A stretch of DNA of 64,000 nt from a virus (IMGVR_UViG_3300017774_006254:32001-96000); one strand, 5' to 3'. Shown: positions 93 to 16,393, counted from the first letter of the stretch. The notes: a model not told the origin generated them from the letters alone. Numbers and translations are program-made.

Positions 93-905
93 TCAGAGGA
101 CGTCGCGGGAGTGGATGCCGTCGATGAGGTACTTGACGTCCTTCTCGATGTCATCGCGACCCGCCGTCGACAGGCCGGTGCCCGAGGCGCCCGACGCGAC
201 GATCGTTCCGCCAGGACCGTTGCCCCACGCGTCGTTGTTCGGCACGAGGCCGTTCAACTGATCCACAACCGACGCGCCCGAAGCCTGGCCGATCGGCGAT
301 GCGATCGCGATGACGACGAAGCCCTGACGAGGCGGAATGAGGATCGGACGCGCAAGACGCATGAGCGCCGAGCTGGTGGGCACGCCGTTGTTCGCGCGGG
401 GAAGGCGCGAATCAGCGAAGAAACCATCGAGACCACCAGCAAACGGCGTGTACGCCGTGTACGTGGTGAGCTGGGGCTTGTCACCAGCTTGGAACTGCCA
501 GAACAGCTGGTTCTGGGTCTGGTGGTAGAGCTTGTGCACGCGGTTGATGCGGTCTCCGGAGACCGTGCCAACTGCGCCAACCGGCGTCGCGTTGCCCGCG
601 TTGATCGCAGGGAAAGTCTGGTCCGCGCCGGTCGTCGAACGCGGCGACTCGGTATTGAACCTGAAGTACGTCCAAACGCGGACCGCGAGGGTCACGAACG
701 TCTGGTCGGAGGGGAAGAAACCACCGGTCGTCAGGTTGCTGACGGCGATGTCCGCACCCTGCTTGGTGAAGAGCTGCGAGCGGCTCTGCACGGCCCCGAA
801 CACGCCCACGTTCGCCTGACGGAGGTCGCCCTGACCGTCTACGCGAAGGAGGGAATCGTAGAACGGCTGATGGATGCGTTCCCTGGTACCAACAATTTTC
901 GGCAT
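93..905 (-). CDS. Putative jelly-roll major capsid protein
   Basis: ORF from MPKIV (ATG at 905). The pattern QPFYD...QLF...SNL..GGFFP...F...AVRV recalls jelly-roll capsid proteins of tailless viruses. It is beta-rich and lies downstream of the membrane-protein cluster. Confidence 0.5.
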   Translation of the reverse strand: MPKIVGTRERIHQPFYDSLLRVDGQGDLRQANVGVFGAVQSRSQLFTKQGADIAVSNLTTGGFFPSDQTFVTLAVRVWTYFRFNTESPRSTTGADQTFPAINAGNATPVGAVGTVSGDRINRVHKLYHQTQNQLFWQFQAGDKPQLTTYTAYTPFAGGLDGFFADSRLPRANNGVPTSSALMRLARPILIPPRQGFVVIAIASPIGQASGASVVDQLNGLVPNNDAWGNGPGGTIVASGASGTGLSTAGRDDIEKDVKYLIDGIHSRDVL

Positions 906-1067
906 CTTGACTTGCTTTCCAAGTGTGTTGAATGTACTACTCAACACCGGTCCCGCTGATTGAGGATTCCACGGTCCATCCATGGAGCCCACGACCCAAA
1001 ACTTCGCAGTGGTACGGAGCTTTTGCCTTGCGGCTACTGGGTCGCATGATTTGCGCTTGGCTGACTA

Positions 1068-1883
1068 TCAGCCGAGCATTCCGGAGAAGATGTGACGAGC
1101 GAACACGCCGCCCGCGTAGCCCTGATCGCCCGAAGCGAAAGACTTCGAGACGCGGCGGACCTGAGGCCTGGACTGCATGGGAATCGCGCCGTCCGTAGGC
1201 GTGATGGTGGTGACCGCTTCCATGCGGTTCATCGAGCTGTCGACTGCACCTTGGTCACCGGGCTCGCCAAGGTCGCCGATGCCAGAGATGCCGTCGCCAG
1301 AGTCGCCGAGGCCGCTCATCGGCTGATCGACGTACTCACCGATGCCAGCCGCGGCGTACATCGTGCCGAGACCAAGCATTCCCTTGTAAGGCGCGCCCGC
1401 GTGGGAGATGTCGTATCCACGACCCATCCCAGAGAGCATGCCTTCGTTGTAGTAGCCCGCCGTAGCCGTTGGAGCCGCAGTCGCCGGAGCGCTTGCGACA
1501 GCCGGAAGGATGGCAGCTGCTGGTGAGCCGCCGAGCATCGGCATGTTGCGAATGAACGATTCCGATGCAGCAAGCCCCGCTCCGATCACCGCCGCATTGG
1601 CCATTGGGCCGCTGACGAGGGAAGGAAGCGAACGCTGGGCAGCGAAGTAGGCCGGGATGAGAACGGCCGCAGCGGCAACCTTGCCATACCGTGGGTCGGC
1701 AAGCAAGCTGATTTTGCTGGAGGCGATGTTTCCAGCGACACGGGTGGCGACAAAGCCAACCGTGCCACTGAGAACCGGACTTACGACGTCCCGCACGATG
1801 TCAGAGTCCAAGAAATTCTTGAGAATCCGACGGACTCCCCGCTTCGAGCGGGCATTTTTGCGACTGGTACGGCGACGTGCCAT
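1068..1883 (-). CDS. Virion membrane/core protein, paralog of the C-terminal part of 1931..4696
   Basis: Basic N-terminus, 2-3 hydrophobic segments, an EYVDQPMSG motif and the C-terminus GYAGGVFARHIFSGMLG, shared with the neighbouring ORF. Confidence 0.7.
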   Translation of the reverse strand: MARRRTSRKNARSKRGVRRILKNFLDSDIVRDVVSPVLSGTVGFVATRVAGNIASSKISLLADPRYGKVAAAAVLIPAYFAAQRSLPSLVSGPMANAAVIGAGLAASESFIRNMPMLGGSPAAAILPAVASAPATAAPTATAGYYNEGMLSGMGRGYDISHAGAPYKGMLGLGTMYAAAGIGEYVDQPMSGLGDSGDGISGIGDLGEPGDQGAVDSSMNRMEAVTTITPTDGAIPMQSRPQVRRVSKSFASGDQGYAGGVFARHIFSGMLG

Positions 1884-1930
1884 GAGGAACTCCTTGAGAG
1901 ATGTTGCTGCTGAAGCTCAAGAGCCTAGGC

Positions 1931-4696
1931 TCAGAGCATTCCGCCGAAGAGATGACGTGCGAACACGCCGCCTGCGTAGCCCTTGCCCTCTGGCGTGACG
2001 AGCGATGCGTTGATCTCGCGATCAAGCGGCATCTGGCCCGTGACCGGAAGCGCTCCGGAGACTGGCATCTCGATCGACGCCCACGGCGGCTGGCGCTTGG
2101 AGTACATGGCGGCCAGGTCTGCATCCGCTTCGCCCGAGCCCATTTCATCGGACCCGAAGCCAGCTGCGGCCTCCATGACGCCGCCTTCCATGGCGTTCAT
2201 GGCGCCATCAATTCCGGCCATGTTGCCCGGATCGATGCCCTCGGCGTACGAGCCGACGCCCGCTGCCGCGTACATCATGCCCATGCCGCTCATCGGCTGA
2301 TCGACGTACTCGCCGGTGCCTGCTGCGGCATAGAACGCGCCCATGCCGTTCATCGGCTGGCTGACGTACTCGCCGATGCCGTTGACGTACTCACCGAGGT
2401 ACGCAGCAGCGCTTGTTCCCGCCGACACGCGCTGAATGACGCGGTCAGCGAGGGCCAGGCCCATGCCGGTGACGAGTGCGCCACGATGACGCCTCACGAT
2501 GCCCACCTTGGTCGCGAGACCAAGCGTTGCAGCGATGCCGAGGATGTTCGCGGCGATCTTGGTGTTCGAGGCGCCCGAAGCGTCCGAAGCGCCCGAGTCA
2601 AGCATGCCTCGGACCGCGCCGATGTTCGCGACACCGTTCGAGAGCAAGCGTGCTGCGATGAAACCAGCGGTGCCGCCAAGAACTGGCGTTGCGACATCAA
2701 GGATCGCGCCCATGCCGTTGCGACGAACGCCACGACGCGAACCACGACGACGACGTGAGCTGCGACGATTCATGACCACGTACTTCTGATTCCTGCGCAT
2801 CGACGACCTCTTTCTCGACGAACGACGCCTTTTGTTCGCCGTCATCTTCCTGCTTGACTTCCTGGACTTGCGCCGCCCGTACCATGCGGGGGGCTTGCGC
2901 CAACGGCTGTAGCGCCTGCGCTCCGCGTATCCACCAGTGGTGGCGCGTGCGTGCGCGTCCTTCGCAGCTCCGCCGAAGCGGAATTTGCGCACGTACGAGT
3001 GCTGCGAGACGTGCGGCGGAACGAGGACCGGATAGCCCGCGTTGCGGAACTTCCTGCCGGACTTCGGGCCGTACTCGACGAGCTGGTAGTAGCGGCCCTT
3101 GGGCGTGCCGACTCGGCTGGAGCCTGAGCCTCGGTACTTGACCTTCGAGACGGCCAGCATGTTGCGCGTCAAGCGCGAGCCACGACGGCGCGAACCACGG
3201 CGTGATCCGCGACGCGAACCGCGACGCGAACTGCGGCGCCTGTTCATGACCACGTACTTCTGGTTGGCCGTCACACGACGACGCGAACCACGACGACGGC
3301 GTGAGCCTCGACGCGATGAACGACGACCATTGGCCGTGGCGTACATCACATTCTTGCTCATGCGACGGCGCGAGTTCCGGCGAACCGAACCCCGACGCGA
3401 CCTGCGACGACGGCGACCGTTGGCTGTTGCGTACATGGTGTTCTTGCTCATCCTGCGACGTGAGTTGCGACGAACCGCTCGGCGCGAACCTCGGCGCGAC
3501 GAACGACGTGACGATCGGCGCGACGCGCGACGCGACCGGCGACGACCATTGGCCGTCATGCGGCGCTTCCTGCGACCACGGTACGTGGCGCCAACCGCGT
3601 AGCCACGCTTCGAGGAACCACGGGGCTTGCCACGCCTGCTGGTGAGACGACCAGCCGAACGCGGGATCGGGTAGGTGAGAATGCTCGGGCGTCCAGAACG
3701 GCTGAGCGGAAGTCGACCAACCCTCGTGATCGTGGGCATCAGCCCGCGCGTGAGGTACTTGTCGATGTACTCGCGGCCCGTCGTGCGAACACGCTTGCCA
3801 TGAAAGTAGCGCTTCTTGCTGGCGCGCCTGCGGGACGAACGGCGACTGCGCTTGCGCCCATTCGCCTGCATGCGGCTGTTGCGGCGACGGCGCGCTGCTG
3901 CACGCGAAGCCCTCGTCGAGTGGCGCTTGCTTCCGCGAGCGACGGCCACACGGCGACTGCCCCTGCGCGAAGACTTCTTCGAGGTCTTGCGTGACGTCTT
4001 GCGGGCCCTCTTCTTTGGACCAGTGCCAGCCTTGCGCGTGAGCGCGGCCTTGCGACCAGCCCGACGACGCGACGTGCGACGCGCTGATGTCTCGCGAATC
4101 GAAGCTCGGCGACGAGCCTTTCCGCGAGGGGTCTGCCTCGATGCGCGACGGCGACGACCACGCGACGAAATGGACATGCCACCCGCCGAACGCGTCTCAG
4201 TCACAGCCTCATGATCTTGACCACCACGAGCAGCTGCGCCCATTCCTGCGTACATCTCGTCTTCGTCGAACCCGTAGTTGCGACGAAGCCCATTGGACTT
4301 CATTGCCTTCCTCAGGGCGCTGATGTTGTATGCCATTCCACTTCTCCTCTTAGGGTTCCTGAGCATCGAGCCAGGGATCGCTTTGGTTAGGACCGTTCCG
4401 TACTCATCGGTCGCGTAGAGACGAGCTTTGCCTCGGCCCTTTCCGGTCTTGTCCGGATGACGCTCCGCCCAAGACTTCGCACCTTGCAGCGTCCTGTACT
4501 GCGGGCTTTCATGGATCTGCTTCCTACGACCAGAGATCCATTGAAATGGATTTTGCTGCGGAGGACGGCCTGTGTTCACGACAGTCAGCGCATTGACCCC
4601 AGGGTTCGAACGAAGACCACGATTCGGCTCCATGCCAGGCGATCTCTCGTACTGGCGCGCCGACTGCTTGGTGCTTCGTTTGTAGACTAGGGCCAT
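1931..4696 (-). CDS. Arg/Ser-rich protamine-like DNA-condensing core protein with a C-terminal membrane domain
   Basis: 921-aa ORF with roughly 500 aa of RRSSRRGSRR-type low-complexity sequence, then hydrophobic helices and GEYV repeats. There is an internal RBS (GAGGAG) and ATG at 4336. Confidence 0.75.
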   Translation of the reverse strand: MALVYKRSTKQSARQYERSPGMEPNRGLRSNPGVNALTVVNTGRPPQQNPFQWISGRRKQIHESPQYRTLQGAKSWAERHPDKTGKGRGKARLYATDEYGTVLTKAIPGSMLRNPKRRSGMAYNISALRKAMKSNGLRRNYGFDEDEMYAGMGAAARGGQDHEAVTETRSAGGMSISSRGRRRRASRQTPRGKARRRASIRETSARRTSRRRAGRKAALTRKAGTGPKKRARKTSRKTSKKSSRRGSRRVAVARGSKRHSTRASRAAARRRRNSRMQANGRKRSRRSSRRRASKKRYFHGKRVRTTGREYIDKYLTRGLMPTITRVGRLPLSRSGRPSILTYPIPRSAGRLTSRRGKPRGSSKRGYAVGATYRGRRKRRMTANGRRRSRRASRRSSRRSSRRGSRRAVRRNSRRRMSKNTMYATANGRRRRRSRRGSVRRNSRRRMSKNVMYATANGRRSSRRGSRRRRGSRRRVTANQKYVVMNRRRSSRRGSRRGSRRGSRRRGSRLTRNMLAVSKVKYRGSGSSRVGTPKGRYYQLVEYGPKSGRKFRNAGYPVLVPPHVSQHSYVRKFRFGGAAKDAHARATTGGYAERRRYSRWRKPPAWYGRRKSRKSSRKMTANKRRRSSRKRSSMRRNQKYVVMNRRSSRRRRGSRRGVRRNGMGAILDVATPVLGGTAGFIAARLLSNGVANIGAVRGMLDSGASDASGASNTKIAANILGIAATLGLATKVGIVRRHRGALVTGMGLALADRVIQRVSAGTSAAAYLGEYVNGIGEYVSQPMNGMGAFYAAAGTGEYVDQPMSGMGMMYAAAGVGSYAEGIDPGNMAGIDGAMNAMEGGVMEAAAGFGSDEMGSGEADADLAAMYSKRQPPWASIEMPVSGALPVTGQMPLDREINASLVTPEGKGYAGGVFARHLFGGML

Positions 4697-5043
4697 TTGG
4701 ACACACGTTCGCCTCTCGACCCGCCGTAGCAGGGAGGGACACGCCCTAGGTCTTCGATGGTTAAGCTACTGTGTCGGGGTACTCAAGTCCAACTTTTTCG
4801 ATGTCTGACAGTTATTTTGCGAGATCAGCGCTGCGAATGGCGACGTTTTCGCTTCGGCGAACCGTTGACGCACATGACGCATGTATCCACCGCGAAAGAT
4901 CCGCTCAGCACGAAGCAAGCTGTCGCCACACCAGACGCCCTCGAACCAGATATCAGCGGCTTCTTCGGCACGTTCCGCTAGGGCGTCCGACGTGTCTTCG
5001 CGCACCGCGACGCGCAGCTGCACCCGTGGGCCGTTGGCACGCA

Positions 5044-5358
5044 TCAGTCGTCCTCCGGCTCTCGCCGAGGATCTATGGTGGGTTTCTTGAGAATTCTTTC
5101 CAAGCGCTGATGTGACTGCTTGATGGTCGACTGCACGTTCCGAAGAATCGCCGCATCCGTCTGCTGAGCCGGAGGCTTTTCTTTCGTGATCGTTGTCAGT
5201 CCGAGCGCAAGCTCGCAGTCCTGAACGCGCTGTCTTGTCCTAGCCAAGTCTGACTGAAGCTTGGCGACCGCGTTCACAGCGCCTTTGACCAGCTCGTCCG
5301 ACTCTTTGATATGGGCTTGGAGTCGAATAATGAGCTTTTGCGTGGCGTCGTCAGACAT
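5044..5358 (-). CDS. Coiled-coil hypothetical protein
   Basis: Heptad-like sequence, tightly packed in the operon. Confidence 0.55.
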   Translation of the reverse strand: MSDDATQKLIIRLQAHIKESDELVKGAVNAVAKLQSDLARTRQRVQDCELALGLTTITKEKPPAQQTDAAILRNVQSTIKQSHQRLERILKKPTIDPRREPEDD

Positions 5359-5360
5359 GG

Positions 5361-5687
5361 TCAGTCTTGGTGCGCTCCACGCGACAGGAGCTGATCGATT
5401 GACTTCATCACATGCCGCATGTCCGCTTGGACCGTCGCAATGTCCTCGCGCTTGGCCAAAGTGCCAAGCTGAACCTCCATCGAATTGAAGCGCTTGTCCA
5501 CCTGAGCTTCCAACGCAACGACGGTTTTCGACGAGGCGAAAGCGACCTCAAATTCCTTGCGGATTTTCGCGTTCTCTTCGTCCAGCATGGACTTGACGTC
5601 GTTCTTGATCTTCATCCCGAGCGCCCACAGGAAGAACGGGACGATGATGGTTAGGCCTGTTTGGATATGAGTCCACTCGATAGTCAT
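5361..5687 (-). CDS. N-terminal transmembrane plus coiled-coil protein (holin-like or membrane-associated)
   Basis: MTIEWTHIQTGLTIIVPFFLWALG TM segment followed by a coiled coil; start abuts the upstream stop. Confidence 0.5.
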   Translation of the reverse strand: MTIEWTHIQTGLTIIVPFFLWALGMKIKNDVKSMLDEENAKIRKEFEVAFASSKTVVALEAQVDKRFNSMEVQLGTLAKREDIATVQADMRHVMKSIDQLLSRGAHQD

Positions 5688-6355
5688 CATCCGTCGATCC
5701 CGTCCTTGAGAACACACAGTCCGCCGCCAGCCATAACCATCAGGAAACCATCCTTCGGCGAGTAAAGGGCGAGCATGTCTCCCTTCGGCGTGCAGTAGAG
5801 GTAACAGCCGCGAGGGTTGATCTCGTAGACCTCGTTGTCGTCGAAACGCTCGACGAAAACACCGAGGCAGTATCCAAGAAGCGTCAAAGCTCCTGGGGCG
5901 CGGACAGGGAGCTTCTCAGCTTTAGCTGGCGCTGCCCTGCGTTTGCCACCGATGGTGCTCTTTGACGCCTCACGTGCAGGCTCGTACGCAATGACGCCCT
6001 TGCCAAACTCGTACTCCTTGTCGGAGCCGCCACTGCTGTCGTCGTGAACGTGCTTGTAATCTTCGTCGTCGCCGTCTTCATGCCACTTGTCAGTGCGGTA
6101 CATCGTGGATACAACTTGTCCAACGGGTACCACTGACGTGGGCAGGTCGTGATTCAGCTCGACGGTCCTGAGCGGGCGCTTTGCATGAAAGGTCTCGTAT
6201 CGACCCATGGCCCCGTCAAGATCTTTCCCGTGCCGTCCCGAGACTTCATCGGGGTCGATGTCGCGACCAACGTGACTCGTGTCCATCGAAGCGCGGCCAT
6301 TCAGTGTGGACCCGTTGGGCGCAAGGCCCGTGTCTGCTTTGCGTAGGAATCGCAT
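5687..6355 (-). CDS. Hypothetical virion protein
   Basis: ORF from MRFLRK, preceded by a GAAGAAG RBS-like sequence, in the structural operon. Confidence 0.55.
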   Translation of the reverse strand: MRFLRKADTGLAPNGSTLNGRASMDTSHVGRDIDPDEVSGRHGKDLDGAMGRYETFHAKRPLRTVELNHDLPTSVVPVGQVVSTMYRTDKWHEDGDDEDYKHVHDDSSGGSDKEYEFGKGVIAYEPAREASKSTIGGKRRAAPAKAEKLPVRAPGALTLLGYCLGVFVERFDDNEVYEINPRGCYLYCTPKGDMLALYSPKDGFLMVMAGGGLCVLKDGIDG

Positions 6356-6356
6356 A

Positions 6357-6698
6357 TCACTTCTTCTTCCGAAAATGATAGTACAGCGCAACCACGCTTG
6401 CACCAGCTGCGAACATGAGCCAGGGCGATCCTGTCACGCCGCTGATCGCGCCAGCATCGTCGCCCAGGTCCATCATGCTGTTTGGTAAGCGCCGGATTTC
6501 TCCATGCGGCAAATGGTCCCATCCCATGAATGCAGCGCCTCCAGGCAACGGCTTCACATCCGTGTCCGGATTGGCGCCGATAGGGCTGTCTACGATAGGT
6601 TTCGGCGGAAGAGCATCATCGCCGACGGAGACATGAGCCGGAGTCGTGTAGATTCCGTACGCGTTTCTGTCCCAGTTCCATACGGAGTAGAGCGCCAT
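6357..6698 (-). CDS. Small C-terminally anchored membrane protein
   Basis: DLGD motif, then TM segment WLMFAAGASVVALYY and basic tail RKKK. Confidence 0.65.
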   Translation of the reverse strand: MALYSVWNWDRNAYGIYTTPAHVSVGDDALPPKPIVDSPIGANPDTDVKPLPGGAAFMGWDHLPHGEIRRLPNSMMDLGDDAGAISGVTGSPWLMFAAGASVVALYYHFRKKK

Positions 6699-6752
6699 TT
6701 TGACTCGCTGTTGTGCACCAAGGCGCCCACCGTCAAGGTAGCACGGTCTCGC

Positions 6753-7142
6753 TTATCCACGCACTTGGATTCGAAGCATAGCTTTCAGTAGTGCGCGCAG
6801 GCCCGGAACCAAATCGAGCTTCAGCGCGTCTTCGGCATCGGCCCAGCGCATGTCGCTCGATTCCCAGTTGGGTTTGGGAGTGCCAGTCCACGCTGTGCAC
6901 ATGTACGTCGTCAGAGTGCCCCATTTACCTCTGGACTCGGCCACTTTTAAGAGCCCTTTTACTCGCAAATTAGCTTCTTCGAGGGTCTCGCGGATGACTG
7001 CCTGTCGCGGTGTTTCTCCGGGATCGACCTTCCCCATGGGGGTATTCCACCGGTCCGGCATCCATGGGGCTGTCGAGCCTCGACGCAGGAGAAGGATGCG
7101 CCCTTGCTTGTCCACAAGGATGCAAGCTGCGGCGTCCGTCAC
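6753..7142 (-). CDS. Nudix hydrolase
   Basis: Nudix box GKVDPGETPRQAVIRETLEEANL; GTG start overlaps the upstream TGA. Confidence 0.85.
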   Translation of the reverse strand: MTDAAACILVDKQGRILLLRRGSTAPWMPDRWNTPMGKVDPGETPRQAVIRETLEEANLRVKGLLKVAESRGKWGTLTTYMCTAWTGTPKPNWESSDMRWADAEDALKLDLVPGLRALLKAMLRIQVRG

Positions 7143-7423
7143 CTGACCGCTCGTCGTGAGTTCTTCTTCATGTTCGACGCGCCGAAAAAGACAGCGGCTG
7201 CGACGCCCACAAGGCCTGCCCAGCCAAGCACCACTGGCCACCCAATAGCCTGCCGAGGAGGTGGCGTTGGGTCTGAAGCTTGCCCAAGAGCCCGAGCTTG
7301 AGCAATCTCCATTGGGGAGTGGCGACAAGGTGCCGTTGAGATCCGCAACTCGTGGGGTCCCATACAGCGACACCTCGACGTCACGACACCGCACCGGCAT
7401 CTCTCGATGTAGTGGCCCATCAC
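7139..7423 (-). CDS. Small membrane protein with Cys-rich N-terminus
   Basis: CRC..CRC, ALGQ, TM helix, tail MKKNSRRAVR. Confidence 0.6.
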   Translation of the reverse strand: MMGHYIERCRCGVVTSRCRCMGPHELRISTAPCRHSPMEIAQARALGQASDPTPPPRQAIGWPVVLGWAGLVGVAAAVFFGASNMKKNSRRAVR

Positions 7424-7719
7424 TTCCTTCGGAAAGCGAAGAAAGCTCCAACGCCAAGCAGGAGCGCTCCACCGATGAGGTACGGGGTGTACGAGACCTC
7501 AGGCGCCTGTCCGTATGGGAGTCCGGTCGCGGGGTTGATCGCGCCGTACGGCATGCCTGTCGCCGGGTTCATTGGAACCTGGCCTGCGGTTGCGGAAGGA
7601 TCGGCAGCTGGAGGGGTTCGCCCCGCTGCGATGAGCTGCGCCGCAGCGGTACCCACTGCGGTCGTAATTGCCGCGACATCCTCAGCTGTGGTTCCCATCG
7701 ATCTTGCGTACGACATCAT
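7420..7719 (-). CDS. Small membrane protein (MSY family)
   Basis: MSY start, NPATG(M/L)PYG repeated twice, C-terminal TM and FRRK. Confidence 0.65.
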   Translation of the reverse strand: MMSYARSMGTTAEDVAAITTAVGTAAAQLIAAGRTPPAADPSATAGQVPMNPATGMPYGAINPATGLPYGQAPEVSYTPYLIGGALLLGVGAFFAFRRK

Positions 7720-7910
7720 CTACTCCTTCGGTTGCGTTTGACACGACGACGAGCAACTGCGTATGCCGCCCAGCTCAAGGCAACCGCTGCGACTCCAAGT
7801 GCGATTGTACCGCCGATGACAGTGTTCGCCACAGACGTGACGGTCTGCTGAATGGCATGCTCAACAGCTGGCGTGGACTGCCCAAGAGCGCGAATGTGTT
7901 GGTAGCTCAT
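7716..7910 (-). CDS. Small membrane protein (MSY family)
   Basis: MSYQHIRALGQ, TM helix, tail VKRNRRSR; ATGA coupling. Confidence 0.65.
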   Translation of the reverse strand: MSYQHIRALGQSTPAVEHAIQQTVTSVANTVIGGTIALGVAAVALSWAAYAVARRRVKRNRRSR

Positions 7911-8539
7911 TTTCGCCTGTTCCTTCGCACTCGTCCACGAGGGCTGTAAGCAAGAGACCGCGCCGTCCGCTGCGACACGTAAACGGCCGCCCCAACAAGA
8001 CCAATGGCTACCACAGCCGCAGAGCCGATGATGAGAGGCGAGGTGGGAGGTGTCAGACCAACCGTGTCTGGTGGATCTTGCGGAGATGTGCGCGGCGGAG
8101 GATCGGGGACCGGACCGACCGGATACACGTAAACGTCATCCCGAAGGGGAGGCATGATGATCCTGTATCTGCGCAGAATGATTTGTGATCGCGGGCTGAT
8201 CTCCAACGAGGCCCGAAGCAAAGCATCTCGAATGGAGGTCGCATAAGCCACAGCGGGACGCTCACTCGTCGGCCTCCAGCGCGCATACAAAAAACCACCC
8301 GTGACCCACCTGACATCAAGAACAGTCCCCATAGAAGACAGCGTAGACCGAACGATCGCTTTTGCCGTCTCAGCCTGCTCTGGGGTGATGTTCCTGACGA
8401 CCAAGTTTGCGTCGAGAGCTGGGACAAACCCATAAAGCCCAACGCCAAGCCTCGTGACGCCAACAGAGAGACCTTGGACCTCAGTTGTGTTTGCTGTCGG
8501 AATGGAAACCGGAGTTTCGCCAGAAAGTGCGTAGCTCAT
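7907..8539 (-). CDS. Membrane-anchored virion protein (MSY family)
   Basis: MSYALSG start at 8539, C-terminal TM, tail VRRNRRK. Confidence 0.65.
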   Translation of the reverse strand: MSYALSGETPVSIPTANTTEVQGLSVGVTRLGVGLYGFVPALDANLVVRNITPEQAETAKAIVRSTLSSMGTVLDVRWVTGGFLYARWRPTSERPAVAYATSIRDALLRASLEISPRSQIILRRYRIIMPPLRDDVYVYPVGPVPDPPPRTSPQDPPDTVGLTPPTSPLIIGSAAVVAIGLVGAAVYVSQRTARSLAYSPRGRVRRNRRK

Positions 8540-9102
8540 CGAAGCCTCCTGCGGCGGTTGAACGTGAGCTTGGACAGCGTCTTGATTCTCGCGTAGTTGT
8601 TCAACAAGTACCCCGCACTCACAGCGCCTGCGATACCGATGACAGCCCAAGCCATGAGCGTGTAGTTCGCCGAACGAACAAGATTTGGTTGCTCATCCTC
8701 AGAGAGCCGAGCGTACTGCGTAGGACTTGATCCCGTCAGCGCTCTGTATCGATCTTCGAGCAGGTTGTACCTGTTGACGTACTCCTGGGCCGGAGAGATC
8801 GATCCTTGCGCCCACCATGTAGAAGCCGTGTGGTTGAACGCGAGCCACTGATTTCGCAGCTCGTCCCAGTCAGCGAGAAACCGCGTGCCGACAGCGTTGG
8901 CTCGAAGCGCAGCTCGCCGTGGGATGATGTCACGGTCAAGAGACGTGATCTGCCCGTTGATCTGGTTCAACCACGCCCTGACTTCGCCAGGAAGCCAAGC
9001 CAGCCGACTCGGAGTCACCAGTTCGCCAAGAGACGAACGATTCGAGCGCATCGAGCACCCGCAACCGAGCCCATGCACGTGCGGGCGCAGTGCGTAGCTC
9101 AT
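8536..9102 (-). CDS. Membrane-anchored virion protein (MSY family)
   Basis: MSYALRPHVHGLG start at 9102, helical domain, TM, tail LTFNRRRRLR. Confidence 0.65.
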   Translation of the reverse strand: MSYALRPHVHGLGCGCSMRSNRSSLGELVTPSRLAWLPGEVRAWLNQINGQITSLDRDIIPRRAALRANAVGTRFLADWDELRNQWLAFNHTASTWWAQGSISPAQEYVNRYNLLEDRYRALTGSSPTQYARLSEDEQPNLVRSANYTLMAWAVIGIAGAVSAGYLLNNYARIKTLSKLTFNRRRRLR

Positions 9103-9647
9103 GACCGCCTCCGCCTCCTGCGGTTCGCGCGCACCGGTGCTCCTGCAAGCATGAAGTACGCACCCAAGCCAACGAGAGCCGTGCCACCAAGGATCCACGG
9201 AAGGAGGCTCCTTCGACTCACCTCGACCTCAGCAGGCTTCTCCTCCAAAGCTGACTCTGAGGTCGCCGAAGTGTTCCCTTGGGGCCGTGGCGTGACCGTT
9301 GGATCGGCGACCCGCTGGAGAGCCTCAAGACGGGTCGCCAGAGTCTTGGAAACGAGAACACGCGGCGTAACTGCGATGTTCGTTGGGAACGTGGACGGCA
9401 CTGGCAGTCCTGGTCCCGCTTCCGTCAGACCAGCAATCGTTAGGGGGCCTGCACGACCGTCGACCGCGATGGAAGCCTGCCCCCGAGAAGCGCGGAAGGC
9501 GTTGACGGCACGTTGAGCCCAGGTGGCCGTGGTGTCCCAGTACCGAGCGTCAGGTGCGTATGCGCGCCGTTCCCGATCGGGGCCCAAGGCCGTCGATGCG
9601 GTAGGCACGAACGAGTAGTCGATTGCTTGACCCAGATACGACATCAC
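9099..9647 (-). CDS. Membrane protein with peptidoglycan-binding-like motif (MSY family)
   Basis: AQRAVN...IAVDGRAGPLT resembles PG_binding_1 (VDGxxGPxT); TM; tail VRANRRRRRRS. Confidence 0.6.
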   Translation of the reverse strand: MMSYLGQAIDYSFVPTASTALGPDRERRAYAPDARYWDTTATWAQRAVNAFRASRGQASIAVDGRAGPLTIAGLTEAGPGLPVPSTFPTNIAVTPRVLVSKTLATRLEALQRVADPTVTPRPQGNTSATSESALEEKPAEVEVSRRSLLPWILGGTALVGLGAYFMLAGAPVRANRRRRRRS

Positions 9648-9683
9648 ACCCTCTTCTCGCAGCGATCACCTCGCGGCGTTTCT

Positions 9684-10355
9684 TCAGATCTCTTGCCCGT
9701 CGTCACGCAACGCGTCGACGTAATCTTCCCACTGCTTTCCACGTTTTCCAGTGGTAGCTGGGTACAGGCCAACCGTGCCATCGCTGTGCACGATCGCCGA
9801 AAGGCCTTCCTTCTTGCACAGCTTCTCGAAGCCCTTGTCCACCTTGTAGGCGGGCTCGAACTTGATGTTGATCAAAGGAGAGATCTCCTTGAACTTCGCG
9901 CGCTTTGCATCGTCAGCATCGCTGAAGACCTTTGCTCCCGCGACACCGGCCTTTGCGAAGTAGCGAGTCACCTGGTCAGCGAAAGCACTACGACTCGGAC
10001 TCCACCCTCCCGCGCTCTCGCCCTCATCCGGAAGTGCATACGAGGCAGACCCCTCGTCCTCATCATCACGGCTGTTCTTCGTAGGAGCCTTGATGTTTTG
10101 AAGCAAGAAGTACCCGCCGATTCCAGTGCCGACGGCGGTAACCAGCCAGCCCCAAATTGGGAGCGGGCCCATCTTGCGCTGCAAGAACCCCGTCTCCTGG
10201 ATTGGAGCGGGAGCTTGCGCGAGAGACAAGGGGTAAACCGGCATCCCGTTCACGTTCATCATGGGCGCAGGCTGCGCCGCCATGACCGGAGTTGGAGCTG
10301 GAGCCGCTTGCCCGCCGCCGTAGATTTCATCGAGATCGAATTGTTGTTCAGTCAT
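9684..10355 (-). CDS. Single-pass membrane protein
   Basis: TM LPIWGWLVTAVGTGIGGYFLL followed by a soluble domain. Confidence 0.6.
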   Translation of the reverse strand: MTEQQFDLDEIYGGGQAAPAPTPVMAAQPAPMMNVNGMPVYPLSLAQAPAPIQETGFLQRKMGPLPIWGWLVTAVGTGIGGYFLLQNIKAPTKNSRDDEDEGSASYALPDEGESAGGWSPSRSAFADQVTRYFAKAGVAGAKVFSDADDAKRAKFKEISPLINIKFEPAYKVDKGFEKLCKKEGLSAIVHSDGTVGLYPATTGKRGKQWEDYVDALRDDGQEI

Positions 10356-10415
10356 GCCCAGCCTTCAATTGTGAGTTCGAGATCCACCCAAAGATCTCGT
10401 CAGGTTCAGAACAGC

Positions 10416-11492
10416 TCAGTCCCATCCCATGTCGAGGCTTCGGACTTCCCCGGGCTTCGCGATGCGCACGTTCTTTGGCTTCAACGTGACGGTCATCCCG
10501 CCGCCCCTGTGGGTATTCGGCTTGCCCATCTCAGTGGCCAGTCGCGTCGCTTCAGTTTTGCTCGAAGCCAAGGCAGTGTTGTATCCGCCGCCGACCCAGT
10601 TCCACACCCACAGCTTCTTGGTGCTCTTGGGACGCGGGTTCCGAGTGACACGTCGCGAACTGGACTTTCGCTTCCGCTTTGGAATCGAGAAGGTCGTCTC
10701 TTGGGTTTTGATCTTGCAGCCAGGCCCGTGGCCGCGCTTGCCCAAGTCGGGCTTGCCACATGACGGACACGGAAAACTGCCAGCGTTCATGCGCATGCGT
10801 GATCGGCGCCTCGACCCGCGCCGACGCCTATTTGGCGTAACCACCCTCTTCGGCTTCAGGGCGAAGAATGCAAGCGCCCCCACAGCGAGCGTGCCTCCCG
10901 CGAGAACACCCCACATCGGGATGCCTCCAACGGTCTGCGTGAGGAAGGTTGGTTCAGCACTGCCGTCGTAGTACGGCTGCGCTCCAGGCATAGCGCCGGG
11001 AATGGTCGCTGGAGTGGTCGCTGGGGCCGGAAACAAGCTCGTCAGCAAGCCCGTCACCGCCGAGGTCGCAGCTGCCCCCGCATTCGCACCGCTGGAAGCA
11101 CCAGGGCTACTGGATGCGCCAGGAGACGAGGGAGGCGACCCGTACGTCCAGGCGTGCGTGTTTGTGACGCGCGATCCTGAAAGCAGAGCTTGAATCTGCG
11201 CGCCCATGCGAGCGAAGGCCTGATTCACAGCTTCGCCAGTCAGCGCACCCGACGCACGGACGGTCACCCAGAGACTGCCCGCGGGGACGCCACCAGGCGC
11301 AGAAGGGCCGCCCCAACCACTGCCGACGATCGTCCCTGGGAACGAAGCTGCGGCGGTACGCAAGGCCTGAAGCTTCTGCTCAGCCGTGCCGTTGGCTTGA
11401 ACAAGGAATCCGCCGACGAATTGCTGACCTGGCACGTAGCTCGCGCCCGTCGCCAAACCACCAAGACCACTGAACCCTCTTGTGTAACTCAT
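10416..11492 (-). CDS. Membrane virion protein with Arg-rich tail and CxxC motif (MSY family)
   Basis: MSYTRGFSGLGG start at 11492; TM; VTPNRRRRGSRRRSR; CPSCG...HGPGC. Confidence 0.65.
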   Translation of the reverse strand: MSYTRGFSGLGGLATGASYVPGQQFVGGFLVQANGTAEQKLQALRTAAASFPGTIVGSGWGGPSAPGGVPAGSLWVTVRASGALTGEAVNQAFARMGAQIQALLSGSRVTNTHAWTYGSPPSSPGASSSPGASSGANAGAAATSAVTGLLTSLFPAPATTPATIPGAMPGAQPYYDGSAEPTFLTQTVGGIPMWGVLAGGTLAVGALAFFALKPKRVVTPNRRRRGSRRRSRMRMNAGSFPCPSCGKPDLGKRGHGPGCKIKTQETTFSIPKRKRKSSSRRVTRNPRPKSTKKLWVWNWVGGGYNTALASSKTEATRLATEMGKPNTHRGGGMTVTLKPKNVRIAKPGEVRSLDMGWD

Positions 11493-11848
11493 CGCCTGCT
11501 CCTTGGGCGCCTGTTGGCGCGAACTTGCCTCGACGGCTTCAGGGTGTTCCATGCGAACAGCCCAAAGCTGCCAATCGACAACGCGAGTCCAATCAGCGAG
11601 TAACGCTCCATCCGCTGGGCTCGCTGCTCTTCCTTCGACAACTCCGTGACTTGGCCAAGGTGCGACGACTGAAGGTACGGACGACGCGGTCCGAGATGCT
11701 CAGACCGAAGACGAGGCGGCTGCGTGGTGTAGATGAATTGCGACACCGAGCCCCGCTGACGCTGCGGCTGACTGAGGTCCGCAAATACCCACGGGTTCGT
11801 AACTCCCCATGGCTGATAGCCAAGGGCTCTGTTCACTCGGTAGGTCAT
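11489..11848 (-). CDS. Small membrane protein (MTY)
   Basis: MTYRVNRALG, HLGQ, TM, tail VRANRRPRSRR. Confidence 0.6.
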   Translation of the reverse strand: MTYRVNRALGYQPWGVTNPWVFADLSQPQRQRGSVSQFIYTTQPPRLRSEHLGPRRPYLQSSHLGQVTELSKEEQRAQRMERYSLIGLALSIGSFGLFAWNTLKPSRQVRANRRPRSRR

Positions 11849-12117
11849 CACTCCTCCTGACCGCGGCGAATGCTCTTCGCGACGTTCTTCTTGATACGAG
11901 GCATGAGCCAACCCCAGACCGCGTAGCCAATTCCAATTCCCGTGGCAACTCCCAATGGAATCGTGAACGCAGGGCGCTTGTACCAAGCAAGGGCGCTGGT
12001 ATCGACTTGCCCAACGCCGTACAAGGGGACAACGCCTGCTGCCGCTGTGCGGACGCCGGTCATGTTCTGTGCGTAAGCCTCACGAGCTTGAGGCGTGACG
12101 AAGTCCTGTGCGTTCAT
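11848..12117 (-). CDS. Small membrane protein
   Basis: YGVGQ, TM, IKKN plus basic tail. Confidence 0.6.
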   Translation of the reverse strand: MNAQDFVTPQAREAYAQNMTGVRTAAAGVVPLYGVGQVDTSALAWYKRPAFTIPLGVATGIGIGYAVWGWLMPRIKKNVAKSIRRGQEE

Positions 12118-13541
12118 CGAAGTCCAGCCTTCCTCGCAAGCTTCTTGGCGTTGCGCGTGATCGACTTGCGGTTGCTCCAGGCGAAGTAGCCACCAATGCC
12201 GATCGCTGCTCCGATCAGCAAGCGTGTCGGCGTGATGAACGAAGGCGAGGCGGGAGCCACGGGCTCTGCTGTGACCTGGCCCATGCCAGCGACAGCCGCC
12301 GAGCTGAAGAGTGCCCCGAGGTCACCCTTCATTGCATTCTGGTCGCGCACCAGCGGACCAAGATGCGCCGCCGCCGCCGCCTGCATCGGAGCGCGAGTGC
12401 GCCTTACGCTCGTCGACAGACGATCGAGGTTCGGAAGCGATCCTTTTGACCGAGCGACCCCCTGAAGGTCTTTGACCGTTGCGTGCATGATGGCATGCGC
12501 GAGCGTGTCTTCGAGCGCCGACTCGGGCTGCTGCCCAAGGTCCACGAGCCGCTTGGCTGTGCTGCCAGTGCGAGCCGCTGTTCCAGCCCCGAGAGAGTCA
12601 GCTGCCTGAGCGACGAACCTCGACCGCTCCTTGGGAGCCAAAGACCTCGCCTCCGTCATGATGAGACGAGCGGCCTTCCGTCCGAAAGCTTCGACGTGGC
12701 TGCGTGGACCAGACTCGCTCTGACGCATCTCTGGCACAGGCTTGGAGACGAAGGGCGAGTACCCAGGCTTGTACGAGTTGACGTTCGTGGCCAGCGTCAC
12801 GCCGCCAGCCGAAGGCTGAACGACACGCCACTCATTCGCGGTTGTGTCCCACATCTCACTCTGTTGGACGCCAAGATCGTCTTCATCCGCGAGGTAGGCA
12901 GGTAGCGCGTACTGGTTTGCGAAGGAGCCGTCACGCGGACGCCACGTAACCCCTTCTTCCATGTCAAACACGCCGCTTCCGATCGTGCTCTGTGTCGAGT
13001 CGTTGAACTCGTAGCTCTCGCGATCGTACAGCATGTCAGAGGGGATTCCCTCGTTCGATGGCTGCTGGTTGCGGTTGCCATGCCAGGACGCTGGGGGAAC
13101 CTGAACGTCATCGTGGACTTCGAGAACTTCTGGCTCGTTGTGCATATCGTCTCGCGCGAACTTTCTGGGCGGGCTCATGTCAACATCGCCGAGGTTTGAG
13201 TCTCGGAGTGCCATGTCCGTCCGTTGCATCGAATGAGGGCGGTAGCCTACCGCGCTTCCTGGGCCCCAAGGATACGAGCCGTAGGTGGTCGCAGCCGCGT
13301 CCGGACTGTCCACGTCGTCTGCGATCTTGAATCGAGACATGCCTTCGACATCTGGAGCTGGAGCTGCGCCGGGGTTCCTTCCTGGAGTCGACAGTGTGTC
13401 TTCCTGAAGGTCGTCATCGAGGAACGATGAACCTTGCCCATTGGGACCACGGGCGTAGTCCTGCGCGTCAAGGTTCGCGTTGCCTCGCATGGTCGGAATG
13501 GCCATGTCGCCATCATCGTCAAACCCGTAATCGTTACTCAT
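12114..13541 (-). CDS. Membrane-anchored protein with acidic N-terminal half
   Basis: RBS GAGGAG before MSNDY; helical domain related to the two upstream paralogs; AGMGQ, TM, ITRN plus basic tail. Confidence 0.65.
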   Translation of the reverse strand: MSNDYGFDDDGDMAIPTMRGNANLDAQDYARGPNGQGSSFLDDDLQEDTLSTPGRNPGAAPAPDVEGMSRFKIADDVDSPDAAATTYGSYPWGPGSAVGYRPHSMQRTDMALRDSNLGDVDMSPPRKFARDDMHNEPEVLEVHDDVQVPPASWHGNRNQQPSNEGIPSDMLYDRESYEFNDSTQSTIGSGVFDMEEGVTWRPRDGSFANQYALPAYLADEDDLGVQQSEMWDTTANEWRVVQPSAGGVTLATNVNSYKPGYSPFVSKPVPEMRQSESGPRSHVEAFGRKAARLIMTEARSLAPKERSRFVAQAADSLGAGTAARTGSTAKRLVDLGQQPESALEDTLAHAIMHATVKDLQGVARSKGSLPNLDRLSTSVRRTRAPMQAAAAAHLGPLVRDQNAMKGDLGALFSSAAVAGMGQVTAEPVAPASPSFITPTRLLIGAAIGIGGYFAWSNRKSITRNAKKLARKAGLR

Positions 13542-13553
13542 GTCTCTCCTCAC

Positions 13554-14252
13554 TCACTTCAACAGGAAGTATCCGACGCCGAGGGTGGCCACAACTGCGC
13601 TTCCGCCCATCAAATAGAGGCGAATCTGCGCACTGCGCGCGTTGGCCTGGTTGGCTGATGCCTGAGCCGCTGCCGCTGCCTGAGCCATCTGAAGGTTCGC
13701 CTGAGCTTGCGCCGCCGCCGCCGCTGCCTCGCGACTCTCGCGCCCACAGTCAAGCTCTCCTCCAGCAATAGCCGATCCGATGCTTAGTACACCGCCTACG
13801 ATTTGACCGTACACGGGAATGACACTGGCCACGCCACCGACCGTCGACGCGCCGCTCGCAATGCTACATGCGGTAGCTCGGTCATTCGCGGAGAACGCGC
13901 CTAGCGCCTCTGCTCCGTGGATACGTGCCGCATCCATCCGAAGCGACTCGATACCTTCGCCACGCTTGAAGTTCGCGATGGCAAGTCGGATCGCGTCGAA
14001 CAAAGACTGGTCGTTGCCTTTTCCAGACGATACGATCTCCTGGTACATCCGATTGACATGGCGAGCCATGCCAGGAGCGATAGCGTCCAGGCTATTGCTG
14101 ATGAATCTGCGGCGTACATCAACTGGCTTCCGTGCCGCTTTGAGTAGTAGCTGCGAAGCGCGCAGTGATGCGTTCGCAAGTACCGCGTCGTGTTGCGCCG
14201 CGGAACCTACCGTCATGGCCCTTGACGGGCGAGCTGCTAGTGAGTACGTCAT
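13554..14252 (-). CDS. Membrane-anchored virion protein (paralog of 14252..14902)
   Basis: MTY start, FDAIRL motif, Ala-rich helix, C-terminal TM. Confidence 0.65.
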   Translation of the reverse strand: MTYSLAARPSRAMTVGSAAQHDAVLANASLRASQLLLKAARKPVDVRRRFISNSLDAIAPGMARHVNRMYQEIVSSGKGNDQSLFDAIRLAIANFKRGEGIESLRMDAARIHGAEALGAFSANDRATACSIASGASTVGGVASVIPVYGQIVGGVLSIGSAIAGGELDCGRESREAAAAAAQAQANLQMAQAAAAAQASANQANARSAQIRLYLMGGSAVVATLGVGYFLLK

Positions 14253-14902
14253 TACTTCAGAGCGATCTTGGCTGCGACAGCTAGCGCCAAAATCCCAGCG
14301 ATTCCGACGCCCGCATAGAGTACCGTGCGATTCGTCTGCGCGCCCGTGTTTAGCCTTGCCATCTCTAGGGCGGCGGCGGCCTGCTGCGCGGCCACTTCAG
14401 CTTGTAGGCGAAGGGTCGGGAGGTTGCAATTCCCAATCGCCGCTCCAGCATTCGCTCCTCCGACGATGGAGGTGTCTGCTCCAGATCGAAACGCTCCAAC
14501 CCAGCCGCCCGTGCTCGCTGAGAGCGAGGCACCTGTGCAGGCAAACGTGTTCGCATCCGCGGCGAAGTCGCCAAGCCCCGACATGCCACGAGCCGCCTGA
14601 CTTCCAGCCCATTCCTGTAGGCGATTGGCGAGCACGAGCCGAATCGCGTCGAACACCGCTTGATCCGGAGTGCGCGTGCGAGAGATGATGCCGATCTTTG
14701 CGATCGCTTCGTCTCCCATCTTTGGCCACAGGTTGTTCAGGCGGTTGCGAAGCCAAGCCATTCTGGATGAAGCGTCAACCTTGGCCATGTGGAGCATGAC
14801 TTCGCTCGCCATGAGCGAAGCTTTGCTCACGAACGGATCTGTCTGAGCAAGCTGCCCCGAGACGACTTGCCCGAGCCCAGCCATTGCTTGTGCGTAGCTC
14901 AT
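14252..14902 (-). CDS. Membrane-anchored virion protein (MSY family)
   Basis: MSYAQAMAGLGQ start at 14902, FDAIRL, MSGLGD, C-terminal TM. Confidence 0.65.
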   Translation of the reverse strand: MSYAQAMAGLGQVVSGQLAQTDPFVSKASLMASEVMLHMAKVDASSRMAWLRNRLNNLWPKMGDEAIAKIGIISRTRTPDQAVFDAIRLVLANRLQEWAGSQAARGMSGLGDFAADANTFACTGASLSASTGGWVGAFRSGADTSIVGGANAGAAIGNCNLPTLRLQAEVAAQQAAAALEMARLNTGAQTNRTVLYAGVGIAGILALAVAAKIALK

Positions 14903-15234
14903 CGACTTCTCCGACGCGACTTTCGGCCGCTTCTGTTCTTGGTGACACCAGGACGCGCAAAGCCTTGCGTGAACGCAATCACCGGGACAACAACAGGGAG
15001 CATCGCGCCCCCAAGAAACCACGCGAGCGTCCACCCGAGGTCGCCGCGATTCCGCTTGTACCCATGGTACGCAGAAACCGCTGCGCTGATAGTCGAGAGT
15101 CCCCAACCAGCAACCACCATCGCTCCTGTCGGTCGGAACGTGACGGTGATCGGAGACGGAACTGAATCGATCGCCTGTCCGAACGCTGAGAGGCCGATTC
15201 CGGGACCGTCGTAGTAGTTCGTCTTGGTGGTCAT
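14899..15234 (-). CDS. Two-TM membrane protein
   Basis: AYHGYKRN between two TM helices; tail VTKNRSGRKSRRRSR. Confidence 0.65.
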   Translation of the reverse strand: MTTKTNYYDGPGIGLSAFGQAIDSVPSPITVTFRPTGAMVVAGWGLSTISAAVSAYHGYKRNRGDLGWTLAWFLGGAMLPVVVPVIAFTQGFARPGVTKNRSGRKSRRRSR

Positions 15235-15235
15235 A

Positions 15236-15832
15236 TCAGTCAATCTCGAAAATGGTGTATTGCTTGATCCGACGAAGCATATTCCCTGTCCGGCGCCCCG
15301 CAACAGGATCGAGGACCCACCACTGCTTCGTGCGGGGATCTTGAGCACGCGCAAAGACGTGCGTATGAATTTTCGGCTCGCCAGCCAACTGCGGCTTGAA
15401 GCCACAAGTGACAAACTGACCTCGGGCCCCGATTGTCAGACAAGATGTAGCAATCGCGAGAGCGATGTCGTCACAGTCGCAAGCGGCACGCCCCGCAAGG
15501 GCATCAGCCAGAATACGGTCGGGACTGCGAATCAGCTCAACGTGCAGAGGATCGCGCGTGTACCTGGTTGCGTTTCCCCACCAGCGGGAGATCGCGATGC
15601 ACTCGCTCGAATAGTCCTTCGGCCGCACGTTGTTGATGATCTGTTCCGTGTGTCTGCGGAAACTGATACTGCGCTCCCCCTGCAACGCATTCTGCACCAT
15701 CACTCGCGGGTCGACGAGACCCTTTGCGAGGTTGATCATCACGGCAACAGTGTGATCAGTACCTCGGTATGGTTCCGTGGTACCAACTGCGTTGTTGTAG
15801 GTCGGTGAGTATGAGTTTGCTCTGAGCTGCAT
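15236..15832 (-). CDS. Transglutaminase-like cysteine protease (candidate maturation protease)
   Basis: Catalytic-triad motifs ACDCDD, HTHVF and WWVLDP; YTRDP upstream. Confidence 0.8.
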   Translation of the reverse strand: MQLRANSYSPTYNNAVGTTEPYRGTDHTVAVMINLAKGLVDPRVMVQNALQGERSISFRRHTEQIINNVRPKDYSSECIAISRWWGNATRYTRDPLHVELIRSPDRILADALAGRAACDCDDIALAIATSCLTIGARGQFVTCGFKPQLAGEPKIHTHVFARAQDPRTKQWWVLDPVAGRRTGNMLRRIKQYTIFEID

Positions 15833-16054
15833 GCAGATACCTGTGCCCAGGCGCCCACATGAAGTCTCGCACGATCTCTACTCAGCGCGCAAGGAAACGA
15901 CTCGACCTTGCCTTGTCCCTGTCACCTGGCCCTGGACGCTCCATCCGCTCGAAGCGAGCCTCAAGTTCTCGTCCAATTGCCTCGCCTTGTCGCATAAGCT
16001 CTGCCACTTCCGCTCTCGTGAGAGTGCGCGGTTTTGAGACTGGCGAGCCTTGCG

Positions 16055-16393
16055 TCATCTGGTCGACATCTTCTTGCCGTCACGCTTCAGGAATTTCGGA
16101 GTCTCTGTCTTTCGTTCCATGATGGGACGCGCTTGCGCAATCAACTCCGCACGCACCGAGATCGGTCGCTCGCCCTGCCACGTAGTCACAAGGGTGAACT
16201 GGCCGCCTTCCGGTATCTCGATCGACCGCATCAGCTTCGACGGTATCGTGTAGGTACTACCGTCGTGAAAGCGAACGTGCGCCCGCTCCCCTTGGTACTT
16301 GACAACCATTGCTGGTTTTCGTTCCTCACGCGGGGGAGCGGGCGTCGCATAGCTGCCAAGCCCTCGAAGACCCTTGGAAGTCGGGGCAGACAT
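16055..16393 (-). CDS. Hypothetical protein
   Basis: Coupled ORF in the operon; LRGLGSY motif. Confidence 0.5.
   Translation of the reverse strand: MSAPTSKGLRGLGSYATPAPPREERKPAMVVKYQGERAHVRFHDGSTYTIPSKLMRSIEIPEGGQFTLVTTWQGERPISVRAELIAQARPIMERKTETPKFLKRDGKKMSTR

Follow-up and report, generated by a model that had tools for sequence, protein, structure and literature searches.

A lineage-wide asparagine motif at the junctions of poly-arginine segments in structural-module proteins of large uncultured bacterial viruses

The adenovirus protease (AVP) recognizes the consensus (M/I/L)XGX-G or (M/I/L)XGG-X in pVI, pVII, pX/mu and other substrates. It is a cysteine enzyme that uses DNA as a cofactor, and the 11-residue basic peptide pVIc, with its RRR run, is cut from the C-terminus of pVI (PMC4246237). 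Prohead proteases, such as gp21 of phage T4 (L/I-x-E) and that of phage SPN3US (A-x-E), remove targeting propeptides (PMC7411985). LapG is a site-specific processing protease that acts at a di-alanine motif (PMC10990149), and the asparagine peptide lyases (MEROPS families N1, N2, N5, N7 and N8, and YscU/FlhB, N6) cut directly after Asn, including at Asn-Pro and Asn-Ala (PMC3207474). Here, we analyze a 64,000-nucleotide viral window (IMGVR_UViG_3300017774_006254:32001-96000) and describe a motif, h-x-x-N, in which a hydrophobic residue (h) lies three positions before an Asn next to a run of arginines. As judged from the sequences, h-x-x-N is a short linear signal that occurs throughout the lineage and marks the exact junction between the poly-Arg segment and the working part of structural-module proteins. 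The window comprises bases 32001–96000 of a 161,502-bp virus record whose GC content is 59%; positions below are those of the window unless the genome is named. A 123-bp overlap between its ends indicates a complete record, of a genome that is circular or has terminally redundant ends. The lineage, made up of uncultured bacterial viruses of 150–300 kb, is frequent in metagenomes.

Genes were called genome-wide, and we counted the proteins whose last 30 residues contain [VILM]-x-x-N with three or more R/K among the 6 residues after it. Fifteen called proteins carry this combination, compared with 1.8 expected (the mean of 1000 within-tail shuffles; maximum 6). The original prediction thus stands on the point for which a check had been set in advance, namely that the motif exceeds background. 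In the non-coding frames of this DNA, Arg is more abundant still, yet the motif occurs 4 times against 6.3 expected. As a control for specificity, we examined six-frame open reading frames (ORFs) from six genomes or loci of the lineage, selecting those with a C-terminal basic run and a hydrophobic helix upstream. The residue directly before the basic run is Asn in 38 of these ORFs and any other residue in at most 5. Asn accounts for only 1.4% of the tail residues, and Gly is nearly absent before the basic run.

A logo of 72 tails gives V27/M11/L8/P7 at position −3, A/T/S/R/K at −2 and A/P/K/S/R at −1, then N and R. At locus L003, from a 298-kb relative (G003), position −3 is often Pro, Ala or Ser (P-T-P-N, A-T-A-N) versus Val or Met, which may be a lineage-specific shift of the motif. 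All six Arg codons are used in the 72 tails, in mixed proportions, and the distance from the Asn to the stop codon ranges from 3 to 28 residues; this makes it a signal at the level of protein rather than a DNA repeat. Across the whole proteome, a hydrophobic residue three positions before any Asn is only weakly favored (0.26–0.27 versus 0.225), and hence the signal is a property of basic junctions and not of Asn generally. Of 18 cases in which a second Asn falls inside an otherwise pure Arg run, 13 have V, M, I or L exactly three positions before it. Taken with the junctions described below, this makes the hydrophobic residue and the Asn a single unit. An N-glycosylation sequon was considered and ruled out by inspection, the +2 residue being mostly Arg rather than Ser or Thr.

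The ten tails quoted in the original prediction are all present, each in a minus-strand ORF of its own within 7139–15414 (Table 1), and in every one the motif lies on the C-terminal side of a hydrophobic segment. These proteins had been described as mutually unrelated, and pairwise BLAST of the tail-stripped sequences indeed shows no similarity. In the 72 tails, the helix-to-motif distance is 0–29 residues, mostly 5–14, and poly-Arg runs of 5–12 residues stand directly behind membrane helices. With at least five Arg/Lys in a short terminal peptide, the tails correspond in sequence to the Arg-rich nucleic-acid-binding motif. In the protein at 10416–11552, the tag is internal; a Cys-containing C-terminal part of about 120 residues extends beyond it, and a third site, VTRN-P, lies at 10638–10649.

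Orthologs keep the motif while the rest of the tail changes, as seen in related IMG/VR viruses of 152–298 kb. In two relatives, G002 and G004, the h-x-x-N and a basic run are retained and the remaining tail is rewritten, and families that lack the tail lack the motif in all three genomes. The paralogs at 13554–14252 and 14252–15106 (both minus strand; 32% identity) have a terminal membrane helix and no basic tail; their orthologs in G002 and G004 lack the tail as well. For the protein at 14899–15414, the Asn is kept in all seven orthologous tails seen, with V or I at −3 in six of the seven. The family of the 475-residue protein (12114–13541) is broader, with more than 130 homologous clusters at 90% identity on contigs of up to 259 kb. 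In 39 homologs of 45–69% identity, the second tail Asn is at least 90% conserved, its neighbors vary, and the mean column identity of the alignment is 50%. At residue 440 of the same protein, at least 90% of the homologs carry another Asn, in T-P-R-N or a like sequence, immediately before the membrane helix, which in them thus lies between two Asn sites; the corresponding residues in this genome are T-R. Five IMG/VR relatives (139–298 kb) have 6–10 tails per 18.5–21.4-kb locus on the coding strand, and 0–1 on the other. The suggestion of a virus-wide signal is therefore borne out: the motif is far above chance, acts at the protein level, survives tail turnover in orthologs and is common to related viruses. 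Two further searches yielded little: a locus search with the single protein at 9684–10355 returned no related locus, and a scan of IMG/VR with the DNA pattern for V-x-x-N-R5 found an upstream helix and nearby stop in 4 of 80 among the matches listed, a number with little bearing on how widely the motif is spread.

The motif had been placed in membrane proteins of the range 1068–15832; its actual distribution is wider, taking in soluble proteins, N-terminal Arg-rich leaders and the interior of a 921-residue protein. It ends the tails of an M23 peptidase, of several proteins just past the end of the window and of two soluble proteins upstream. The M23 peptidase gene (L010:1006-1911, plus strand; genome 96506–97411) starts 506 bases past the window and encodes a C-terminal helix with an M-Q-P-N-RRR tail; its G002 ortholog has a poly-Arg tail without Asn. 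Arg-rich N-terminal leaders closed by the motif are found in a 966-residue protein, a SprT-like protein and the 271-residue protein at 1068–1883. In the SprT-like metalloprotease domain protein (L013:5255-6298, minus strand; genome 154755–155798), the leader of 18 residues ends in V-A-R-N, followed by Pro. Asn is the commonest residue at leader boundaries (8 cases), against a background frequency of 2%. In the 921-residue protein, Arg blocks terminate in VRRN, MTAN, VTAN, VVMN and LTRN, and the last site, VRRN-G, lies 13 residues before a conserved hydrophobic domain. In all, this fixed spacing is found in five proteins from four viruses, where h-x-x-N stands 13 residues before a conserved hydrophobic domain and the next residue is G, F, L, V or P.

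In leaders, the Arg run precedes h-x-x-N; in C-terminal tails, it follows the Asn. As read from the protein sequences, h-x-x-N is N-terminal to the junction in every case, irrespective of which side bears the poly-Arg, and the residue after the Asn is free (R, G, A, S, P, F, L or V). Placement on one side only, with a P1-like residue that is strict, a P4-like residue that is hydrophobic and a P1′-like residue that is free, is the signature of an endopeptidase site. Our favored, though tentative, reading is that h-x-x-N is a maturation or trimming site from which poly-arginine peptides are released; we put this somewhat short of probable. It is favored because of the N-terminal placement, the free residue after the Asn and the hydrophobic residue three positions before the second Asn. 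The motif would represent positions P4–P1, with the cut falling just after the Asn. The Arg segments would serve first as DNA-binding or assembly handles and, once cut off, would remain beside the packaged DNA as short polycationic peptides. The conserved cysteine enzyme of transglutaminase fold, whose gene lies in this block, could be the reader of the motif. A fuller version of this scenario is doubtful in its entirety: in large, apparently tailless viruses, the transglutaminase-fold enzyme or Asn cyclization would cut about 20 proteins and a 921-residue polyprotein, and dozens of poly-Arg peptides would condense the 161-kb genome.

The candidate enzyme, encoded at 15236–15832, shows 57–85% identity among homologs, and C120, H158 and D175 are invariant in the 38 homologs. 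Transglut_core (PF01841) is matched by 10 of the 38 homologs (best E 1.9e-5), the protein of the window itself not being matched. Its AlphaFold2 model has a predicted local distance difference test (pLDDT) score of 78. VIA Z scores are 13.3 for the putative protease 3kd4, 11.3 for TG3, 10.7 for 3isr, 9.4 for PNGase and 8.8 for LapG, and Foldseek gives a probability of 1.00 for the top matches. On this model, the protein is assigned the transglutaminase core fold. In the PDB, the enzyme profile also matched designed Kelch 'SAKe' proteins repeatedly, and these spurious matches were discarded as artefacts. The conserved Cys-His-Asp and the fold agree with the candidate protease of the original prediction, but the fold includes non-proteases, and the link to the motif is one of position. 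From its place in the gene block, we infer that the enzyme could read the motif. Its own N-terminus, MQLRAN, had been listed as a further instance; the string is in the sequence, but its N is H, A, S or T in most homologs.

Several observations weigh against cleavage by this enzyme. The MQLRAN start is probably a chance occurrence, judging from the alignment. The transglutaminase fold also covers PNGase, cross-linking transglutaminases and phage pseudomurein endoisopeptidases, and the protein at 15236–15832 may be a lysin or an amidase. LapG, a protease of this fold, cuts at Ala-Ala (PMC10990149). Half of the leader junctions are Asn-Pro. The Asn-Pro bond is cut poorly by many endopeptidases. 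Part of the terminal Arg content is tied to nucleotide constraints, with AGGAGG-type sites and ATGA overlaps lying in the tail codons. A more distant relative, G005 (a 71.6-kb IMG/VR fragment; L170:1-20000 and L168:4000-10800), has the transglutaminase-fold enzyme (E 1e-84) and the candidate capsid protein (59% identical), yet its membrane proteins lack N-poly-Arg tails, which implies that the activity of the enzyme is independent of the tails. The polycationic proteins of G005 are rich in Lys and Ala, and the Lys/Arg tails at the ends of its membrane proteins are short and lack Asn. Three G005 junctions that follow basic segments nevertheless carry h-x-x-N, and the presence there of both enzyme and junction sites speaks for the proposed reading. 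N-poly-Arg tails seem to have arisen within the lineage, and the G005 junctions fit an older junction site that later spread to tails.

It is also possible, though on balance unlikely, that the motif is an uncleaved docking tag. The tails would then stay in place and tether DNA, or an acidic capsid or scaffold surface, to the membrane proteins, with the hydrophobic residue and the Asn acting as a fixed cap or a specific contact, as in some Arg-rich nucleic-acid-binding peptides. A 5–12-residue poly-Arg run behind a helix does look like a DNA tether, some 20 different proteins carry such runs, and the Arg-rich motifs of HIV Rev and of nodavirus and bromovirus coat proteins hold a functionally important Asn. 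However, a docking tag would be expected to keep the order of motif then Arg, and in the leaders and the 921-residue protein the Arg comes before h-x-x-N. The sequence after the Asn is also arbitrary, and with PRD1-like budding the positive-inside rule would have cytoplasmic Arg tails face the capsid rather than the DNA. The original prediction had offered Asn-directed processing and docking to the inner face of an internal membrane as alternatives; placement favors processing, although sequence alone does not decide between them.

Covalent chemistry at the Asn is a less likely explanation still. It could take the form of enzymatic transamidation or cross-linking, yielding the kind of Lys-Asn isopeptide seen in HK97 capsids or a transfer to the amine of a lipid, or of Asn cyclization that breaks its own bond. 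A strict Asn with a free next residue, including Pro, suits cyclization, and there are precedents: YscU is cut at N-PTH, and nodaviruses, tetraviruses and picornavirus VP0 cleave at Asn in maturation (PMC3207474). The enzyme shares its fold with PNGase and the transglutaminases, whose substrates are amide side chains. Against this, the known asparagine lyases are all cis-acting, with an acidic partner provided by the folded domain in which they cut (PMC3207474), and the tails here are of low complexity, with no conserved Asp or Glu within 10 residues. Known transglutaminases, moreover, use Gln and not Asn.

That the motif is only a topology signal, a positive-inside cluster behind a tail anchor with the Asn as helix C-cap, we consider improbable. 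Transmembrane helices are universally followed by basic residues, Asn is among the residues favored as helix caps, and the motif lies 5–14 residues past the helix in most tails. A capping preference, however, does not yield 38 against at most 5 with Gly nearly absent, and the fixed hydrophobic residue at −3 is left unexplained. The motif also occurs on helix-free proteins, on leaders and in the 921-residue protein, and G005 has membrane proteins of the same kinds whose basic tails lack Asn, indicating that topology needs no Asn. A nucleotide or compositional artefact (GC-rich codon bias, repeats or the ribosome-binding sites of coupled downstream genes), despite AGGAGG-like sequences at tail ends 6–10 nucleotides before the next ATG, stops that overlap this ATG as ATGA, and an AGG share of 17% in tails versus 11% in gene bodies, is largely excluded and very improbable, given Arg-rich non-coding frames without motif excess, the use of all six Arg codons, an Asn at variable distance from the next start, tails without a closely following gene, and conservation at the amino-acid level. 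The AGGAGG and ATGA constraints account for some terminal AGG codons, not for the Asn.

Positions 93–19088 form a single minus-strand gene block, with many small membrane proteins (by hydropathy) among its structural genes. Features of the block are listed in Table 1. The genes ending at 7139, 7716, 7907, 8536, 9099, 11489, 11848, 12114 and 14899 are ATGA-coupled, with an AGGAGG-like site within the last Arg codons upstream. The next gene in coupled pairs often starts ATG-AGC-TAC (Met-Ser-Tyr), with GCAC coming next in several cases. Midway through the structural-looking block, at 6753–7142 (minus strand), is a gene for a NUDIX hydrolase.

Table 1. Motif-bearing segments and associated genes in the window
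Feature	Protein or ORF	Position	Strand	Remarks
Candidate major capsid protein	270 aa	93..905	-	Most conserved protein of the module; context only
Arg-rich N-terminal leader	271-aa protein, 1068-1883	1815..1883	-	Ends ILKN-F, 13 residues before conserved hydrophobic domain
Arg/Ser-rich part	921-aa protein, 1931-4696	2717..3871	-	14 h-x-x-N sites
MKKN-SRRAVR, C-terminal tag	94-aa ORF, 7139-7423	7142..7171	-	After hydrophobic helix
VKRN-RRSR, C-terminal tag	64-aa protein, 7716-7910	7719..7742	-	
VRRN-RRK, C-terminal tag	7907-8650	7910..7930	-	N tail with other sequence in G004 ortholog
LTFN-RRRRLR, C-terminal tag	8536-9198	8539..8568	-	G004 ortholog ends LASN-RRH...
VRAN-RRRRRRS, C-terminal tag	9099-9647	9102..9134	-	
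Internal tag: helix, VTPN, Arg run, MRMN	10416-11552	10785..10841	-	
VRAN-RRPRSRR, C-terminal tag	11489-11986	11492..11524	-	N kept, tail sequence unrelated in G002 and G004 orthologs
IKKN-VAKSIRR..., weaker basic run	11848-12117	11851..11895	-	G002 ortholog MKSN-GKKKK
Tail with two sites, AWSN-RK and ITRN-AKK	475/479-aa protein, 12114-13553	12117..12182	-	
VTKN-RSGRKSRRRSR, C-terminal tag	14899-15414	14902..14946	-	
Transglutaminase-fold Cys-His-Asp enzyme	198 aa	15236..15832	-	Candidate reader of the motif

The protein at 93–905, the last of the block, shows 69–86% identity in relatives whose other proteins show 43–68%, and has more than 250 clusters in metagenomes. Its AlphaFold model is of low confidence (pLDDT 58). 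Foldseek matches, to picornavirus and polyomavirus capsids, all have E > 0.09; VIA gives Z ≤ 5.9 to generic beta-sandwiches, including those of calicivirus, SPV1 and P23-77 VP16; and in the Atlas the protein is near PM2 P2 and PRD1 P3 domains at chance level only. A profile search of the PDB likewise gave chance matches. We regard the protein as a candidate major capsid protein, its fold and the capsid type being unsettled on these models. Pfam and PHROGs contain nothing for it, for the 921-residue protein or for most motif carriers. No clear packaging ATPase of the TerL_ATPase or FtsK families was found anywhere in the genome: TerL_ATPase had no match, in a search that did not extend to portal, and the one FtsK_SpoIIIE match is below the cut-off (E 4.7e-4, 16 bits) and lies inside a 953-residue SNF2-domain protein (genome 11960–12175, minus strand). 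A PHROG match to 'terminase large subunit' is not a terminase, being a Hint/LAGLIDADG intein inside a helicase at 49383–52505 (plus strand). By its gene content, the virus may form tailless virions with an internal membrane, in which the motif carriers would be located.

Neither the candidate capsid protein nor the 475-residue protein has a relative in 50,697 GenBank phage records, and so any handle on the particle biology of this lineage is useful. The motif is a simple and specific marker that predicts particle proteins, and possibly their mature ends, in uncultured viruses of 150–300 kb. If it is a cutting site, a transglutaminase-fold enzyme would have a new protease specificity, with Asn at P1, and adenovirus-type, protease-driven release of polycationic DNA-condensing peptides would take place in bacterial viruses too.

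For an Asn-based junction motif beside poly-Arg tags, we found no described counterpart, and the motif is best filed with virion targeting and maturation motifs. It resembles LPXTG, PEP-CTERM and GlyGly-CTERM in being part of a C-terminal signal, carried by many unrelated proteins, that joins a short motif to a hydrophobic helix and a cluster of basic residues. In those tripartite sorting signals, the motif precedes the helix, whereas here it follows, which sets it outside their class; no sortase or exosortase was seen. Like viral Arg-rich and protamine-like genome-binding tails, the tails described here are short terminal Arg runs expected to neutralize nucleic acid. Those tails, however, lack a fixed motif at the junction and any coupling to membrane helices, and the conserved h-x-x-N before the run is new here.

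Asparagine peptide lyases share with this system an Asn at the cut, which here is putative, and their coat-protein members cleave during particle maturation. They differ in being self-cleaving, with a folded domain, an acidic partner and one site per protein, whereas h-x-x-N would be a portable linear signal on disordered, low-complexity tails of about 20 proteins. Poly-Arg tails of 3–28 residues do not provide the folded domain and acidic partner of a lyase acting in cis. The protein at 15236–15832 resembles the BTLCP (LapG) and PF01841 families in its core fold and invariant Cys-His-Asp; LapG differs in being periplasmic and calcium-dependent and in cutting at di-alanine. We know of no transglutaminase-fold member that cuts after Asn.

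As would be expected of a maturation-protease code, the motif recurs in unrelated proteins, is conserved among orthologs and sits at module boundaries. In T4 and SPN3US, too, short terminal segments on unrelated proteins share a motif of 3–4 residues, and those segments are known propeptides that direct the proteins to the assembling particle and are later removed. T4 and SPN3US, however, are tailed phages with HK97-type heads, and their proteases are serine enzymes with Glu at P1; here, the segments are poly-Arg tags, and there is no match to a terminase ATPase family. Adenovirus AVP is the closest precedent: its consensus, too, spans four residues, with a hydrophobic P4 and a small polar residue fixed at P1 or P2, and is present in many unrelated particle proteins. 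Short basic products stay with the DNA in adenovirus, as we propose for the poly-Arg peptides. The differences are an Asn rather than a Gly at P1, a transglutaminase rather than an adenain fold, a bacterial host, tags mostly behind membrane helices, and cleavage that here is putative. If h-x-x-N is indeed cut, this lineage would provide a bacterial-virus counterpart of adenovirus core maturation.

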